UHGV virus genome: UHGV-1654074
From: a virus
Length of the DNA: 12,580 nt
Strand: one strand, 5' to 3'
Shown: positions 1,494 to 12,580 of the stretch, piece by piece
Numbering within the stretch: the first letter of the stretch is position 1
Layout of the letters: every line of letters begins with the position of its first letter
The notes under the pieces: generated by a model
Told to the model about the DNA's origin: nothing
The model's database searches: none
Seen by the model: only the letters and a program-made list of their open reading frames with translations
Position numbers and translations under genes: made by a program

Positions 1494-1513
1494 GGCCCGT
1501 AAGGGCTTTTTTT
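1494..1513 (+). terminator. Weak intrinsic-terminator-like element: short GC stem (GCCC/GGGC) with GTAA tetraloop followed by T7.
   Basis: ggcccgtaagggc followed by ttttttt, 24 nt after the capsid stop (1468-1470). The stem is only 4-5 bp, so strength is doubtful. Confidence 0.35.
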
Positions 1514-1524
1514 GTACCTGAAAT

Positions 1525-1543
1525 CAGCCCCTGAACGGGGCTG
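1525..1543 (+). promoter_or_regulatory. Stable hairpin (7-bp stem CAGCCCC/GGGGCTG, loop TGAAC) just upstream of the RBS of the next gene; no U-tract, so not a terminator. Possible mRNA stability or translation-modulating structure.
   Basis: Perfect 7-bp inverted repeat at 1525-1531 / 1537-1543. GGAGA (1546-1550) and the ATG at 1557 follow. Confidence 0.3.
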
Positions 1544-2738: not shown

Positions 2739-3136
2739 ACCGACATACACAAATCCGCCAGGTCGTACTGGCACGCCTTCGGGAGCAGTGTGGAGACAGC
2801 GCCACGTTTTTTGACGGGCTTCCGGCATTTGTTGATGCGCAGGAACTGCCTGCCGTGGCGGTGTGGCTGAGTGATGCTCAGTACACCGGAAAAATGACGG
2901 ATGAAGATGACTGGCAGGCTGTTCTGCATATTGCTGTCTTCATCCGGGCACAGGCACCGGATTCAGAGCTGGATATGTGGATGGAGAGCACCATTTTCCC
3001 GGCCCTGAATGATGTACCGGCACTTTCCGGACTCATCGACACCCTGATCCCACTCGGTTTTAACTATCAACGTGATAATGAGATGGCCACCTGGGCGATG
3101 GCGGAAATCACGTACCAGATCACGTACACGAATTAA
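2735..3136 (+). CDS. U: Tail terminator protein U homologue (133 aa from the ATG at 2735; alternative start at 2723).
   Basis: Translation (...ATFFDGLPAFVDAQELPAVAVWLSDAQYTGK..., DSELDMWMES..., ITYQITY) matches my recollection of lambda gpU (131 aa). ATGA start/stop overlap with Z. Confidence 0.85.
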   Translation: MNRHTQIRQVVLARLREQCGDSATFFDGLPAFVDAQELPAVAVWLSDAQYTGKMTDEDDWQAVLHIAVFIRAQAPDSELDMWMESTIFPALNDVPALSGLIDTLIPLGFNYQRDNEMATWAMAEITYQITYTN

Positions 3137-3146
3137 GGAGGTGGTA

Positions 3147-3890
3147 ATGACCACACCAAATCCACTGGCAAAAACGAAAGGTGCGGGAACGACGTTCTGG
3201 ATGTACACCGGCAAGGGCGATGCGTTTGCGAACCCTTTATCGGACACTGACTGGCTGCGTCTTGCGATGGTGAAGGATCTGCAACCTGGCGAAATGACCG
3301 CTGATGCAGAAGATGACACTTATCTCGATGATGAAGATGCAGACTGGAAAACGACAACCCAGGGGCAGAAATCCGTCGGTGATACTTCGGCGACGCTGGC
3401 CTGGCGTCCGGGTGACAGCGGACAGAAAAGACTGGTTCAGTTGTTCGACTCCGGTGAAGTCTGCGCGTTTCGAATCAAATATCCCAACGGTACTGTTGAT
3501 GTTTTCCGTGGCTGGCTGAGTTCACTGGGTAAAACCATTGCCTCAAAAGACGTGATGACCCGCACAGTGAAAATCAGCGGTGTGGGGCGTCCGTATCTGG
3601 CAGAGGAGGGCACTGAAACCGTGGGCGTTACCGGGCTGACGGTGGCACCGGCATCCGCCAGTGTCAATGTGGGAGCAACCACCACGCTGACCTTTACAGT
3701 AAAACCTGACGGAGCCAGTGACAAAGCGATCAGTGTGCATTCGACAGATCCACAGACAGCCACTGTGACCCTGAACGGGCTTGTGGCCACGGTGAAAGGC
3801 GTGAAGCAGGGCAGTGTCAGCATTGTGGGCATGACTTCTGACGGCGATTTTGTGGCAGTGGCTACGGTGGCTGTCAGCGCCGCAGGTTAA
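3147..3890 (+). CDS. V: Major tail tube protein V homologue (247 aa) with a C-terminal Ig-like (Big_2-type) domain.
   Basis: AAGGAGG at 3135-3141, 5 nt before the ATG at 3147 (the track start at 3072 is upstream and unlikely). MTTPNPLAKTKGAGTTFW..., YLDDEDADW and NGTVDVFRGW motifs match my recollection of lambda gpV (246 aa). The C-terminal ~90 aa are T/V/S-rich beta-strand-like sequence typical of Ig-like domains. Confidence 0.9.
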   Translation: MTTPNPLAKTKGAGTTFWMYTGKGDAFANPLSDTDWLRLAMVKDLQPGEMTADAEDDTYLDDEDADWKTTTQGQKSVGDTSATLAWRPGDSGQKRLVQLFDSGEVCAFRIKYPNGTVDVFRGWLSSLGKTIASKDVMTRTVKISGVGRPYLAEEGTETVGVTGLTVAPASASVNVGATTTLTFTVKPDGASDKAISVHSTDPQTATVTLNGLVATVKGVKQGSVSIVGMTSDGDFVAVATVAVSAAG

Positions 3891-3910
3891 CAGGACGATA
3901 CTCATCATTT

Positions 3911-3934
3911 GCCCCGGTTATCCGGGGCTTTTTT
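3911..3934 (+). terminator. Intrinsic (rho-independent) terminator-like hairpin between V and G: 7-bp GC stem GCCCCGG/CCGGGGC, TTAT loop, then T6.
   Basis: gccccggttatccggggctttttt read directly. The V-G spacer is 57 bp, against roughly 15 bp in lambda as I recall it. Confidence 0.6.
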
Positions 3935-3950
3935 GCAGGTGGAGAACATG

Positions 3951-4337
3951 ATGTTTCTGAAACAGGGCACGTTTAATCATGAAAAACAGTCCGTGGTGCT
4001 CAGTGAGCTGTCCGGGCTGCAGAGAATTGAATATCTGGCGTTTCTTCAGCAGCGAACGGCAAAGTTTGATGCCGAAGAGGGAGAACTGCCGGAGGCTGAA
4101 CGACAGATTGCTTTTCTGCGGATGGGGATGGATATCAATGCCTGGCTGGTTTCCCGCTCACTGTGGAATGCGGATCAGTCTAAGGATGTAGAGACGCTTT
4201 GCGCATCCGTTATTACAACATGGTCGTATGATGCCCTGGGTGCGGGGGCGGAGATGGTTCTGTCGCTGAGCGGTATGGGGGCCATTGAGAATGCCGGGGA
4301 TTTGGAGCATGAGGTGCTGACGCCGGAAAAGTCCTGA
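3951..4337 (+). CDS. G: Tail assembly chaperone G homologue (128 aa from the ATG at 3951; the ATG at 3948 is also possible).
   Basis: MFLKQGTFNHEKQSVVLSELSGLQRIEYLAF... resembles lambda gpG (MFLK..., LSELSALQRIEHLA..., 140 aa). GGAG at 3941-3944 is 6 nt before 3951. Confidence 0.85.
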   Translation: MFLKQGTFNHEKQSVVLSELSGLQRIEYLAFLQQRTAKFDAEEGELPEAERQIAFLRMGMDINAWLVSRSLWNADQSKDVETLCASVITTWSYDALGAGAEMVLSLSGMGAIENAGDLEHEVLTPEKS

Positions 4338-4675
4338 CGCGGGAAATGCAGTTTGTCATGCGGCTTGCCCGGGAGTTCCGGCGGGCAGACTGGCGGCGGA
4401 TGCTGTCGGAAATGTCGGCCACTGAGCTTGGTGAGTGGGGCGATTATTTCCGGATGCAGAGCTTTAGTGATGTGTGGATGGATGCGCAGTTTGCCTCGCT
4501 GAAGGCATTGATCGTGAGAATGGTGTCCGGCAGCAGTGATGCTGCGGTGGCTGATTTCAGCCTTTTACCGGAAGAGAACGGGATACCGGAGCGAACGGAC
4601 GAAGAACTGATGCATCTTGGGGAAGGTATTTCCGGAGGTGTGCGTTATGGACCAGATAGCCAACCTGGTCATTGA
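3951..4675 (+). CDS. G-T: G-T fusion tail assembly chaperone made by programmed -1 ribosomal frameshift near the end of G (candidate slip site G GAA AAG at 4325-4331); T portion 4331-4675. Predicted fusion about 241 aa.
   Basis: The frame of ORF 4346-4675 is -1 relative to G. That frame is open from 4313 (an in-frame TGA at 4310-4312 closes it upstream), so entry must occur within 4313-4334. The only heptamer there with a shifty A-site codon is G GAA AAG. The T part has no SD of its own. Conserved G-T arrangement of lambda. Confidence 0.75.
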
Positions 4676-7600
4676 TTTGGGGATTGATGCGGCAGAGTTT
4701 AAAAATGAAATTCCCCGTATCAAAAACCTTCTGAATGGTGCAGCCAGCGATGCAGAACGGTCTTCTGCCCGTATGCAGCGTTTTATGGAGCGTCAGACTC
4801 AGGCCGCCCGGCAGACAACGCAGGCGGCTTCTTCGGCTGCAACAGCCGCATCCGTCCATGCGCAGACGGTGGAGAAGAACGCACAGGCTCATGAACGCAT
4901 GGCCCGCGAGGTGGAGAAAACCCGCCAGCGCATGGAGGCACTGAGCCAGAAAATGCGCGAGGAACAGGCGCAGGCCATGGCTCTGGCGGAGGCTCAGGAT
5001 AAAGCGGCTGCTGCGTTTTATCGTCAGATTGACAGTGTGAAACAGGCCAGTGCGGGGCTGCAGGAATTACAGCGTATTCAGCAGCAGATCCGACAGGCCA
5101 GAAACAGTGGCGGGATTGGTCAGCAGGATTATCTGGCGCTGATTTCTGAGGTTACTGCGAAAACCCGTGTTCTTACACAGGCTGAGGAAGAGGCTACCCG
5201 ACAGAAAGTGGCGTTTATCCGTCAGCTTAAAGAGCAGGCAACCCGCCTGAATCTTTCATCTTCTGAGTTGCTTCGTGCTAAGGCAGCCCAGCTGGGGGTA
5301 AGCAGTGCTGCAGAAGTGTATATCCGCAAAATGGAGCAGGCAGGAAAAGCCACGCATTCGCTGGGTCTGAAAAGTGCAGCAGCCCGCCAGGAGATAGGCG
5401 TTCTGATAGGTGAACTGGCCCGCGGCAATTTAGGGGCGCTGAGGGGATCCGGGATAACGCTGGCTAACCGTGCCGGATGGATAGACACACTGATGTCACC
5501 GAAAGGCATGATGCTTGGCGGGGTTATTGGCGGTATTGCCGCGGCCGTCTATGGTCTGGGTAAAGCCTGGTATGACGGTCAGAAGGAGGGGGAAGAATTT
5601 AACCGCCAGTTGTCGCTGACGGGGCATTATGCCGGAGTCACTGCCGGGCAGCTGTGGACGCTCAGTCGTGCTATTTCCGGGAATGGTATCACGCAACATG
5701 CTGCAGCCGGTGCGCTGGCTCAGGTGGTGGGGAGTGGTGCATTTCGTGGAAACGATATCGGTATGGTGGCGAGAGCTGCCGCACAGATGGAGCGATCGGT
5801 TGGCCAGTCGGTCAGCGATACCATAAATCAGTTTAAGCGGCTGAAGGATGATCCTGTAAATGCCGCGAAGGCTCTGGACAATGAGCTGCATTTTCTTACT
5901 GCCACTCAGCTTGAGCAGATACGCGTCCTTGGGGAGCAGGGGCGGTCCAGTGATGCTGCACGGATAGCCATGTCTGCACTGGCAGAGGAAACCGGTCGGC
6001 GTACTGCGGATATTGATAATAACCTCAATGCGCTTGGCAGTACGCTGAAGTATCTGTCTGATTTGTGGAGTCGTTTCTGGGATGCGGCCATGAATATTGG
6101 TCGTGAAGACTCGCTGGATGAACAGATTGCCGCTTTACAGGAGAAAGTGTCGCGGGCGAAAAGACTCCCCTGGACGGCATCATCTTCTCAGGTTGAATAC
6201 GATCAGCAGCGTCTTAACGATCTTCAGGAGAAAAAACGCCAGAAGGATTTGCAGGATGCAAAAGAGCAGGCAGAGCGGAATTATCAGGAGCAACAGAAAC
6301 GCCGTAATGCTGAAAATGCTGCACTGAACCGGATGAATGAAACGGAAGCAGCACGACATCAGCGTGAAATTGCGCGTATTAATGCCATGCAGTACGCCGA
6401 TCAGGCTGTCAGGGATGCGGCGATACAACGTGAAAATGAACGTTACGAGAAAGCCCTGGCATCCGGTAAGAAAAAAACACGCGAAACCCGTAATGATGAG
6501 GCCACCCGGTTATTGCTGCAGTACAGTCAGCAACAGGCACAGGTGGAAGGACAGATTGCTGCTGCCAGACAGTCAGCAGGCATTGCCACGGAAAGGATGA
6601 CAGAAGCGCATAAACAGCTTCTGGCTCTGCAGCAGCGCATCAGCGACCTGGACGGGAAAAAACTGACGGCAGATGAAAAGAGTGTGCTGGCCCGTAAAGA
6701 TGAACTGATTCAGGCACTGACGCTGCTGGATGTAAAACAGCAGGAGCTTCAGAAACAGACGGCACTCAACGAGCTGAAGAAAAAAACAATTCAGCTGACC
6801 AGTCAACTGGCTGAAGAAGAGCGCGCTCAGCGTCAGCAACATGACCTGGATATCGCCACGGTGGGTATGGGTGATCAGCAGCGACAGCGATATCAGGTAC
6901 AACTGAGTCTTCGCCAGAAATACCAGCAACAGCTGGAGCAGTTGAGGCGGGATAGTGAGCAGAAAGGGACATATAACACGGATGACTACAGAAAGGCCGA
7001 GCAGGCGCTGACGGAGAGCCTGAACCGACAACTGAATGAGAATCGCCGTTACTGGCAACAGCTTGAAGTTGTGCAGGGTAACTGGAAAAACGGAGTCCTG
7101 CGTGCATTTCAGGATTTTACCGTGGATGCAGATAATACGGCAGAAACAGCAGAACAGGTGTTCTCGTCAGCCTTCAGCAACATGGGAAATGGCCTGGCAA
7201 CTTTTGTCACTACCGGCAAACTCAATTTCAAATCTTTCACCTCTTCTGTGCTGTCAGATATGGCGAAAATCCTGGCGCAGGCAACCATGATGAAATCGAT
7301 AAAAGGGATTGGCAGTGTACTGGGATTTGATCTCAGCAGCCTTTCCCTGAATGCCAATGGGGGGATTTATCAGTCTGCTGATTTGAGTCGTTACAGTGGC
7401 ACGGTGGTTAACCGTCCGACGTTTTTTGCTTTTGCAAAAGGCGCGGGTGTGATGGGGGAAGCTGGACCTGAAGCCATTCTGCCACTGCGTCGTGGTGCTG
7501 ACGGTAAGCTGGGGGTTGTGGCGGATATTGGTGGTTCAGGTATGGCGATGTTTGCCCCGCAGTACAACATCGAGATCAATAACGATGGCACGAACGGGCA

Positions 7601-7712: not shown

Positions 7713-8041
7713 TGGAGACGTTTCACTGGAAAGTGCGCCCGGATATGAATGTGGTATCAGAGCCGAAAGTGGTGACAGTGAAGCTGGGCGATGGTTATGA
7801 ACAGCGTCGTGCGGCGGGACTGAATAACCAGTTGTCGACTTACAGCGTGACGATACGTGTTCGTAAATGTGAACACCCATCTTTAAAAGCCTTTCTGGAA
7901 CGGCACGGTGGCGTCCGCGCATTTCAGTGGACGCCACCTTATGACTGGAAGCCGATCAGGGTGGTTTGTCGTAAATGGTCGGCAAGCGTGGGGGCGTTGT
8001 GGGTAACCATAACGGCAGATTTTGAACAGGTCGTGGCATAG
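7712..8041 (+). CDS. M: Minor tail protein M homologue (109 aa, the same length as lambda gpM).
   Basis: 109-aa ORF coupled to the H stop. M.TF.WKV.P ... GDGY.QR ... TYSV ... WTPPY.W ... AEFEQVV pattern as in lambda gpM. Confidence 0.9.
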   Translation: METFHWKVRPDMNVVSEPKVVTVKLGDGYEQRRAAGLNNQLSTYSVTIRVRKCEHPSLKAFLERHGGVRAFQWTPPYDWKPIRVVCRKWSASVGALWVTITADFEQVVA

Positions 8042-8050
8042 GAGTCTCTG

Positions 8051-8749
8051 ATGCAGGATATTCCACAGGAAACACATCATGAGACGACACGCCTCACTCA
8101 GTCAGCCCAGGTGGTGCTCTGGGAAATCGATCTGACAGTGGTCGGTGGAGAACGTTATTTTTTCTGTAATGAGCAGAACGAAAAAGGTGAGCCGGTCACC
8201 TGGCAGGGGCGACAGTATCAGGCGTATCCCATTCAGGGGACGGGATTTGAACTGAACGGCAAGGGCAGTGCTGCCCGTCCGACACTGACGGTTTCTAACC
8301 TGCACGGCATGGTCACCGGGATGGCGGAAGACCTGCAGAGTCTGGTCGGCGGAACGGTGGTCCGGCGTAAGGTTTACGCCCGTTTTCTGGATGCGGTGAA
8401 CTTCGTCAACGGAAACAGTGACGCCGATCCGGAGCAGGAGGTGATCAGCCGCTGGCGCATCGAGCAGTGCAGCGAACTGAGCGCGGTCAGTGCCTCCTTT
8501 GTACTGTCCACGCCGACGGAAACGGATGGCGCTGTTTTTCCGGGACGTATCATGCTGGCCAACACCTGCACCTGGACCTATCGCGGTGATGAGTGCGGTT
8601 ATCACGGTCCGGCGGTCGCGGATGAATATGATCAGCCGACGTCCGATATCACGAAGGATAAATGCAGCAAATGCCTGAGCGGCTGTAAGTTTCGCAATAA
8701 CGTCGGCAACTTTGGCGGCTTCCTTTCCATTAACAAACTTTCGCAGTAA
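8051..8749 (+). CDS. L: Minor tail protein L homologue (232 aa, the same length as lambda gpL) with a C-terminal cysteine cluster.
   Basis: AGGAG 6 nt upstream. Sequence (VVLWEIDLT..GGERYFFCNEQNEKGEPVTWQGRQYQ...) closely matches my recollection of lambda gpL. Five cysteines lie in CTWTYRGDECGYHGP...DKCSKCLSGCKF. Confidence 0.9.
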   Translation: MQDIPQETHHETTRLTQSAQVVLWEIDLTVVGGERYFFCNEQNEKGEPVTWQGRQYQAYPIQGTGFELNGKGSAARPTLTVSNLHGMVTGMAEDLQSLVGGTVVRRKVYARFLDAVNFVNGNSDADPEQEVISRWRIEQCSELSAVSASFVLSTPTETDGAVFPGRIMLANTCTWTYRGDECGYHGPAVADEYDQPTSDITKDKCSKCLSGCKFRNNVGNFGGFLSINKLSQ

Positions 8750-8753
8750 ACCC

Positions 8754-9497
8754 ATGACAGAGACAGAATCAGCGATTCTGGCGCACGCCCGGCGATGTGC
8801 GCCAGCGGAGTCGTGCGGCTTCGTGGTGAGAACACCGGAGGGGGAAAGATATTTTCCCTGCGTGAATATCTCCGGTGAGCCGGAGGAGTATTTCCGGATG
8901 TCGCCGGAGGACTGGCTGCAGGCAGAAATGCAGGGTGAGATTGTGGCGCTGGTCCACAGCCACCCCGGTGGTCTGCCCTGGCTGAGTGAGGCCGACAGGC
9001 GGCTGCAGGTGCAGAGTGATTTGCCGTGGTGGCTGGTCTGCCGGGGGGCGATTCACAAGTTCCGCTGTGTGCCGCATCTCACCGGGCGGCGCTTTGAGCA
9101 CGGGGTGACAGACTGTTATACGCTGTTCCGCGATGCCTATCATCTTGCAGGTATCGATTTGCCGGATTTTTACCGACATGATGACTGGTGGAAATCAGGT
9201 CAGAATCTCTATCTGGATAATCTGGAGGCCACAGGGCTGTATCAGGTGGCGTTGTCATCAGCACAACCGGGCGATGTGCTGCTGTGCTGTTTTGGTTCAT
9301 CGGTGCCGAATCATGCCGCCATTTACTGTGGTGACAGCGAGCTGCTGCACCATATTCCTGAACAACTGAGCAAACGAGAGAGGTACACCGACAAATGGCA
9401 GCGACGCACACACTCCCTCTGGCGTCACCGGGCATGGCACGCATCTGCCTTTACGGGGATTTACAACGATTTGGCCGCCGCATCGACCTTCGTGTGA
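8754..9497 (+). CDS. K: Tail assembly protein K homologue, 247 aa from the ATG at 8754: N-terminal JAB/MPN (JAMM) metalloprotease-like domain plus C-terminal NlpC/P60-type Cys/His domain. An internal start at 8898 would give a 199-aa form.
   Basis: The JAMM motif H-x-H-x7-S-x2-D is present as HSHPGGLPWLSEAD. Candidate NlpC/P60 Cys (GVTDCYTLF) and His (NHAAIY, HH) lie downstream. The ATG at 8754 is 5 nt after the L stop; the track start at 8712 lies inside L and is unlikely. The ATG at 8898 has GGAGGA 9 nt upstream. Confidence 0.85.
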   Translation: MTETESAILAHARRCAPAESCGFVVRTPEGERYFPCVNISGEPEEYFRMSPEDWLQAEMQGEIVALVHSHPGGLPWLSEADRRLQVQSDLPWWLVCRGAIHKFRCVPHLTGRRFEHGVTDCYTLFRDAYHLAGIDLPDFYRHDDWWKSGQNLYLDNLEATGLYQVALSSAQPGDVLLCCFGSSVPNHAAIYCGDSELLHHIPEQLSKRERYTDKWQRRTHSLWRHRAWHASAFTGIYNDLAAASTFV

Positions 9498-10066: not shown

Positions 10067-10085
10067 TGCAAAATGTTTTATGTGA

Positions 10086-10105
10086 AACCGCCTGCGGGCG
10101 GTTTT
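10086..10105 (+). terminator. Terminator-like hairpin in the I-J spacer: stem AACCGCC/GGCGGTT, loop TGCG, followed by a T-rich tract.
   Basis: aaccgcctgcgggcggttttgtcgttt read directly; it lies 20 nt after the I stop and 22 nt before the J ATG. Confidence 0.4.
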
Positions 10106-10123
10106 GTCGTTTATGGAGCGTGA

Positions 10124-12580
<2,457 letters not shown>

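Follow-up and report, generated by a model that had tools for sequence, protein, structure and literature searches.

The V–G junction in its late operon

The DNA analysed here, a stretch of 12,580 nucleotides to which we refer as the window, carries on its + strand a late operon of the lambda type, as identified by PHROG searches. The genes follow one another in the order protease/capsid fusion, decoration-like, FII-, Z- and U-like, V, G/T, H, M, L, K, I and J. The window begins inside the ClpP-protease/major-capsid fusion gene, whose stop lies at 1470, and J, which begins at 10117, continues past the window end. Between V and G, the genes for the major tail (tube) protein and the tail assembly chaperone, lies a compact GC hairpin that is followed directly by a run of six T residues. 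The features of this junction are compiled in Table 1, together with further hairpins found in other spacers of the operon.

Table 1. Coordinates of the V–G junction and of hairpins elsewhere in the late operon (window positions)
Feature	Position	Strand	Basis
Hairpin of terminator-like form, GGCCC-GUAA-GGGCU + T7, after the ClpP-protease/major-capsid fusion gene (sister hairpin)	1494–1513	+	scan
Second GC hairpin, CAGCCCC-TGAAC-GGGGCTG, without T-run	1525–1543	+	direct reading
V, major tail (tube) protein, gene 5′ of the hairpin	3147–3890	+	PHROG phrog_41, E = 1.7e-122
Linker of 20 nt from the V stop codon to the hairpin	3891–3910	+	direct reading
RNA hairpin, 7-bp GC-only stem (3911–3917/3922–3928), UUAU loop (3918–3921)	3911–3928	+	sequence, scan, fold
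T6 tract, U-tract of the predicted terminator	3929–3934	+	sequence, terminator scan
Shine-Dalgarno-like GGTGGAG of G	3938–3944	+	direct reading
G, tail assembly chaperone, first gene 3′ of the hairpin	3948–4337	+	PHROG phrog_42
Weaker hairpin of terminator-like form, AACCGCC-TGCG-GGCGGTT then TTGTCGTTT, I–J spacer	10086–10103	+	computed

The start of V is placed at the same position by PGAP, and the record of phage mEp460 annotates the major tail protein at 7987–8730 (window + 4840); the V stop codon, TAA, occupies 3888–3890. The ATG of G lies at 3948 according to the mEp460 annotation and at 3951 according to PGAP (gpG). The V–G spacer of the window thereby measures 57–60 nt, compared with 15 nt in lambda (J02459, 9696–9710). 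Within this spacer, the hairpin is positioned 20 nt past the V stop and 10–20 nt ahead of the ribosome site or start of G. The predicted fold leaves the Shine-Dalgarno sequence of G unpaired, and the hairpin does not sequester it.

Sequence identity identifies the window as a lambdoid prophage of the mEp460/cdtI/Ayreon type. Over positions 3100–4700, it is 98.6% identical to mEp460, 96.8–98.6% identical to Ayreon, cdtI, Tritos and others, and 100% identical to a prophage of E. coli SC423 (NZ_LR778145.1). Of 5426 complete E. coli genomes, 1842 contain this V–G segment at a coverage of at least 80%. A prophage of O157:H7 Sakai carries the module with about 97.8% identity, and Term-seq, dRNA-seq and RNA-seq sets for Sakai have been deposited at GEO (PMC7547250). 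In the SC423 prophage, ydfT, a gene of the Q antiterminator family, is located some 10 kb upstream on the same strand, and genes for lysis, terminase and head come after it; mEp460 carries a Q-like late regulator. By extension from these two relatives, a late operon under Q control is reasonable for the window as well, which is the setting that a first-pass annotation of this DNA had supposed.

A scan of the window found no promoter-like site on the + strand between 3934 and 8132, and a downstream promoter that would make 3911–3934 a true operon end, sought up to 8132, was rejected as a candidate. Since essential tail genes follow the hairpin with no promoter-like site ahead of 8132, read-through past the hairpin is needed. 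The element does not mark the end of a transcription unit, as the genes G to J lie beyond it, and for this reason the predicted terminator must be an internal one of the attenuator type, either leaky or antiterminated, and not an operon end.

Several observations concern the neighbouring genes. The first 1470 positions of the window belong to a gene of ~650–675 codons, for which PGAP gives the product ‘ClpP-like prohead protease/major capsid protein fusion protein’. Where lambda has the separate genes C, Nu3 and E, this lineage appears to combine head protease, scaffold and capsid in a single gene. The heptamer GGAAAAG at 4325–4331, located 4 nt ahead of the G stop and with T (4346–4675) in the −1 frame, is the predicted site of the standard G/G-T programmed −1 frameshift; the record of phage LLS marks the same heptamer as a slippery site. 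An open reading frame of 449 codons runs antisense within J on the − strand (11219–12568) and is probably a shadow frame of that gene.

Form and predicted fold of the hairpin

Direct reading of the + strand gives GCCCCGG-TTAT-CCGGGGC followed by TTTTTT at 3911–3934. Stem, loop and T6 are thus exactly as the first-pass annotation had described them, and its statement that the V–G spacer is about 40 bp longer than that of lambda agrees with a measured difference of about 43 nt. RNA folding assigns the isolated hairpin an energy of −15.0 kcal/mol, and a consensus terminator scan of the window ranks the hairpin at 3911–3934 as its top hit, which bears out the terminator-like form that had been claimed for it.

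Folding energies of the surrounding region are unexceptional, with z = −0.56 versus shuffles for the 81-nt context and z = −1.6 for the 57-nt V–G spacer. Whole-region energy is the wrong test for an element of this kind, and a shuffle at the level of the motif was therefore used instead. For this purpose, the motif was defined as 7 GC-only pairs with a loop of 3–8 nt and at least 6 T among the next 8 bases. When the window was shuffled 1000 times with dinucleotides preserved, one shuffle gave a motif of equal quality on either strand. What stands out is the combination of a compact GC stem with the adjoining T-run, rather than the overall folding energy.

The anatomy of the element is that of an intrinsic terminator. 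The stem-loop at 3911–3928 lies within the expected dimensions (stem of ~5–14 bp, loop of 3–8 nt), the T6 tract begins at the first base past the stem, and the whole lies in sense orientation in non-coding DNA downstream of the V stop codon. On the − strand, AAATGATGAG comes after the stem, and the terminator form is restricted to the + strand. A bidirectional terminator was ruled out, given that the − strand has no T-run and that − strand genes are absent nearby. Other candidates were rejected as well. A dispersed or mobile REP-like element was ruled out because all 118 exact copies checked in IMG/VR share one context, between V and G. RNase III substrates are far longer than a 7-bp stem, and an RNase III site was ruled out on these anatomical grounds. 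Rfam returned no match at the gathering score, the best hit being a chance match elsewhere in the region (E = 0.4, 19.7 bits versus 80).

The post-V hairpin is already known, in the sense that it is annotated in the records of sister phages and belongs to a familiar kind of element. In mEp460 (JQ182728.1), a ‘rho-independent terminator’ at 8751–8774 corresponds base for base to window positions 3911–3934 (offset 4840), with a single G-U-compatible difference in the hairpin (TTATT versus TTATC in the window). In Ayreon (MF807953.1), a ‘terminator’ at 8742–8782 covers the same site, and the hairpin is identical to that of the window. These are the same element in the same place, with no structural difference, and the label was given by two independent annotation teams; both annotations are computer predictions. 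The mEp460 record lists five predicted rho-independent terminators across the late operon. The third of these (9389–9406, window 4549–4566) lies inside T, consists of a weak GGCTG-ATTT-CAGCC stem-loop with TTTT, and is probably a prediction artefact. A search of the literature found no transcript 3′-end data for the late operons of mEp460, cdtI or Gifsy-1.

The sister hairpin that follows the fusion gene has a GNRA loop and is likewise annotated as a rho-independent terminator in mEp460 (6334–6353), and also annotated in Ayreon. It shares the 86-nt capsid-to-decoration spacer with the second GC hairpin, which is located just ahead of the ribosome site of the decoration-like gene (ATG 1557). 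The weaker hairpin of the I–J spacer (10067–10116), just upstream of J, carries no annotation in the mEp460 record.

Junctions in close relatives and across V lineages

For the comparison of close relatives, 84 loci were fetched; they are mostly close relatives, selected through the V gene or protein and not through the hairpin itself. The hairpin is present at all 82 of the junctions recovered, in 15 spacer variants, and at 7 further junctions in genomes of other species; the conservation in close relatives on which the first-pass annotation had made its proposal depend is hence found. One of the ten positions of the 5-bp core (GCCCC/GGGGC) is variable among 64 distinct V-to-G haplotypes. Stem changes (3917 G>A; 3922 C>T or C>G; 3923 C>A) affect the two pairs nearest the loop, and the loop varies also. 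The T-run ranges in length from T5 to T7 only and is never interrupted, and the linker varies at 3 of its 20 sites. With third codon positions variable at 32% of sites in V and 23% in G, however, the conservation of the core stem is suggestive but not statistically above this neutral level. No compensatory double changes were found among the 64 haplotypes, and 3917 G>A and 3922 C>T fall in separate ones.

A scan of viral contigs with V returned near-identical relatives only, and the deeper comparison is based on a scan of genomes, one per bacterial species, with an alignment of the V protein as query, yielding 80 loci. The junctions of these loci fall into three states. In state A, the spacer measures 9–23 nt and contains a Shine-Dalgarno sequence only, with no hairpin. 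In state B, a spacer of 45–59 nt holds a hairpin with T5–T7; this state comprises the window type and hairpins with unrelated stems in Kluyvera, Klebsiella, Ewingella, Buttiauxella and Providencia. In state C, a spacer of 34–43 nt holds a GC hairpin without T-run, in several cases with a UUCG loop, and was found in Trabulsiella, Kluyvera, Dryocola, Buttiauxella, Atlantibacter, Leclercia, Kosakonia and Symbiopectobacterium. GC hairpins lacking a T-run occur in at least three lineages beyond those that have both parts. Every V–G spacer of 34–67 nt holds a hairpin of −7 kcal/mol or better, and all but one of the 18 long spacers examined have a folding z below −1.5 relative to their shuffles.

Gifsy-1, whose G protein is 55% identical, has a V–G spacer of 50 nt in which the stem is kept as GCCCCG-GTTC-CGGGGC, while the T-run has decayed to TTCTAT and the flanks cannot be aligned with the window. 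A Citrobacter prophage likewise keeps the window-type stem, with a T-run decayed to TTTGCG and the rest of the spacer unalignable. At the same junction, a Providencia phage carries AGCCACA...TGTGGCT, a hairpin of unrelated sequence, with T7. Short spacers of 10–21 nt are found in lambda, phi80, LLS, VT1-Sakai, PhiR46_1 and PhiR12_5. In the comparison of V–G spacers that the first-pass annotation had suggested, the stem is kept in Gifsy-1 and Citrobacter, with a decayed T-run, and lambda and phi80 are free of hairpins. The description of the hairpin in that annotation as inserted between V and G is apt relative to lambda only, as hairpins occur in many V lineages and the change may have been a gain or a loss.

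In a rough neighbour-joining tree of the V tube domain, the junction states track the clades: seven clades or more have hairpins of unrelated stem, and other clades have hairpin-free spacers. We also counted strong hairpins along 45 distinct junctions (±2.9 kb). The 100 nt past the V stop contain 23 of them, compared with a mean of 4.05 per 100-nt bin; 9 of these 23 have a T-run, and no other bin contains more than 3 of that kind. The second-highest peak, about 2.4 kb upstream, corresponds to the post-capsid junction. Hairpins are strongly and specifically enriched at the post-V and post-capsid junctions of lambda-like tail modules. What is new here is modest, and consists of the three junction states, the repeated independent origin and the position-specific enrichment at V–G.

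The spacer lengths bear on one possible role, in which the hairpin and the long spacer would part the ribosome site of G from the ribosome traffic on V and prevent coupling by termination and reinitiation, with G and G-T translated independently and at a low level. Hairpin-free lineages have the G start 9–23 nt past the V stop, which is near enough for coupling, hairpin-bearing spacers reach 34–67 nt, and in the class with a hairpin only, the stem ends 2–8 nt ahead of the GGAG of G. We nevertheless regard a translational uncoupler as quite improbable. The hairpin pairs with neither the Shine-Dalgarno sequence nor the start codon of G, a T-run is unnecessary for uncoupling and yet evolved repeatedly, and similar hairpins follow lambda D and E, whose downstream genes are also needed in quantity.

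A mosaic joint coincides with the hairpin. When the window was compared with a prophage of E. coli KS-NP019, identity was 97–100% over positions 3623–3922, which span the C-terminal part of V, the linker and the 5′ arm of the stem, and fell to 60–72% from 3923, at the 3′ arm. In the KS-NP019 prophage, a head module of the lambda type (D, E, FI) replaces the protease–capsid fusion. This break exactly at the hairpin might indicate that the element has no selected function, being either a passenger carried along where modules have recombined or the leftover terminator of a former operon end. Such a reading would also fit the many functional phages that lack the element and the within-clade conservation, which is not significantly above neutral. 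It is rather improbable all the same, given that at least seven V lineages have independently acquired unrelated hairpins at this junction, that the enrichment specific to this position is roughly six-fold, that Gifsy-1 and Citrobacter preserve the stem while its flanks are randomised, and that several relatives have extra-stable UUCG loops.

The perfect 7-bp inverted repeat with its 4-bp spacer, and its coincidence with the mosaic junction, could alternatively point to a site acting at the DNA level, either an 18-bp palindrome bound by a dimeric protein or a signal for recombination or replication. However, a search that allowed two mismatches found no second copy of the palindrome in either the window or the complete mEp460 genome, which rules out a repeated operator or DNA-binding palindrome. 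The stems found in the same place in other lineages are of unrelated sequence, so that structure is what is conserved and not a binding sequence. Moreover, the G-U-compatible variant 3922 C>T is tolerated, and the T-run is strand-specific. A DNA-level role is, on these grounds, highly improbable.

Possible roles of the post-V hairpin

The reading that we prefer, with a probability of roughly 0.55, is that the post-V hairpin would serve as an mRNA dosage step in the late operon, combining a leaky terminator with a barrier to 3′ exonucleases. The hairpin is a stable stem-loop between a cistron in high demand (V) and cistrons in low demand (chaperone and tape measure), as expected of an mRNA stabiliser, and the contrast in copy number between the tube protein and the chaperone and tape measure is established lambda virion stoichiometry. 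It is also the structure, rather than the sequence or the U-tract, that is kept across relatives, with unrelated stems in at least seven V lineages.

According to this proposal, polymerase lacking the Q modification would stop at 3911–3934, and Q-modified polymerase would mostly read through the hairpin during lytic growth. This read-through would be required for the expression of G, T, H, M, L, K, I and J, which follow the hairpin and have no promoter of their own. On the RNA, the hairpin would form and cap the 3′ ends of decay intermediates and of those transcripts, a minority, that have terminated, and ends capped in this way would block 3′-to-5′ exonucleases. The mRNA ending after V would consequently outlast and outnumber the G-T-H segment, and the net effect would be an abundance of V and a scarcity of chaperone and tape measure.

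The comparative data lean towards a role of the RNA hairpin, since relatives retain in this position a hairpin that has no T-run. Hairpin-only relatives, and intact stems beside decayed T-runs, favour 3′ protection as the role that would be common to all. The repeated evolution of T5–T7, on the other hand, favours real termination in state B, and since independent versions with both hairpin and T-run recur, termination can be argued to matter.

Within lambda itself, hairpins are found in the D–E spacer, where the stem is followed by T7 (L003, J02459, 1081–1135), and in the E–FI spacer, where the loop is UUCG (2162–2202). Like the post-V hairpin, these GC hairpins are stable, occupy the only long intergenic gaps of a late operon under Q antitermination and lie directly 3′ of genes for high-copy virion proteins, in this case the two most abundant head proteins. 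Unlike the post-V hairpin, they follow head genes, and lambda V is followed by none, with its 15-nt spacer.

The closest parallel outside the lambdoid phages is the terminator Tphi of phage T7, which is located directly 3′ of capsid gene 10 and past which RNA reads drop (10.1101/647024). Leaky terminators are known to tune phage operons, and Tphi has been cited as balancing expression by inefficient termination (PMC9163698). As in the window, a terminator stands right after the most abundant structural gene, and essential downstream genes need read-through. Tphi differs in that it acts on T7 RNA polymerase with no Q control, follows a capsid gene and has been characterised experimentally. Stem-loop terminators have also been predicted after major tail subunit genes or in the late region of unrelated siphophages, namely after gene 49 of mycobacteriophage Corndog and in SPP1, for whose late region predicted terminators are listed (PMC6316719). 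These phages have other hosts, polymerases and modes of late-gene control, their terminators bear no sequence relationship to that of the window, and they are predictions only.

For the protective part of the proposed dosage step, bacterial operons offer a precedent. The REP sequences of malE–malF and the hairpins of the Rhodobacter puf operon stand between strongly expressed upstream and weakly expressed downstream cistrons and block 3′ exonucleases. They match the class of the window’s relatives that have a hairpin without T-run; the hairpin of the window differs from them by having a full U-tract as well.

The hairpin might instead be a safety stop for the prophage state, or for any polymerase not modified by Q, that blocks stray transcription into the downstream tail genes and is neutral during lytic growth. 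The principle of lambdoid Q antitermination has been described (PMC7547250), and Q-modified polymerase is expected to ignore such terminators. The full form of an intrinsic terminator, with an uninterrupted T5–T7 in all close relatives, would agree with this role, as would the life of the module mostly as a prophage, seen in its presence in about a third of the complete E. coli genomes counted above, and the spread of the five predicted terminators through the mEp460 late operon. A safety stop would not account, however, for the concentration of hairpins at two particular junctions, after V and after the capsid gene. In addition, several lineages keep a non-terminating hairpin without T-run at the same spot, and the stem has outlived the T-run in Gifsy-1 and Citrobacter. 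We consider this role unlikely.

A broader formulation can be offered tentatively, although we hold it to be doubtful in its full form. The post-V hairpin would then be a facultative dosage element, in some cases with a U-tract and in others without one, that arose separately in no fewer than seven V lineages. Its main job under Q would be, rather than termination, to provide an exonuclease-protected 3′ end, such that the V mRNA outlives the chaperone and tape-measure part, and the shared GC stem would in addition be a preferred joint for mosaic recombination.

Two considerations weigh against the dosage step on mechanistic grounds. Attenuation after the capsid gene would be counterproductive if the decoration-like protein is needed in amounts similar to those of the capsid protein, and if Q-modified polymerase is fully resistant, a conserved T-run would have no role in lytic growth. 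The first-pass annotation had offered three functions, namely the setting of stoichiometry, 3′ stabilisation of the mRNA and a stop in the prophage state. Sequence comparison as carried out here does not separate them. The observation made in that annotation stands confirmed, and its interpretation is partly supported.

If the dosage reading is true, a single long late transcript would yield very unequal amounts of neighbouring proteins, and hundreds of tube subunits per tail would be made alongside few chaperones and tape measures by simple means. Related phages would then differ in having a hairpin with a U-tract, a hairpin alone or, like lambda, neither. The principle is a textbook one (T7 Tphi), and the post-V hairpin raises no new question. 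Its practical use lies in the annotation of the very common E. coli prophages of the mEp460/cdtI type and in the engineering of phage tail or tailocin operons.

A further argument against the dosage step comes from lambda, phi80, VT1-Sakai and others, which have the same kind of tail with a hairpin-free spacer of 9–23 nt. As the tails of these three are built with no hairpin at this junction, the element is dispensable for the tail design itself. Separately, about 15 contigs assigned to unrelated organisms, among them Neobacillus, Oceanobacillus, Shewanella, Pseudomonas, Kitasatospora, Leeuwenhoekiella and Methyloglobulus, were observed to carry the plain lambda V–G junction. Many of them have a coverage of about 1×, and the junction in these contigs is almost certainly lambda DNA contaminating the assemblies.
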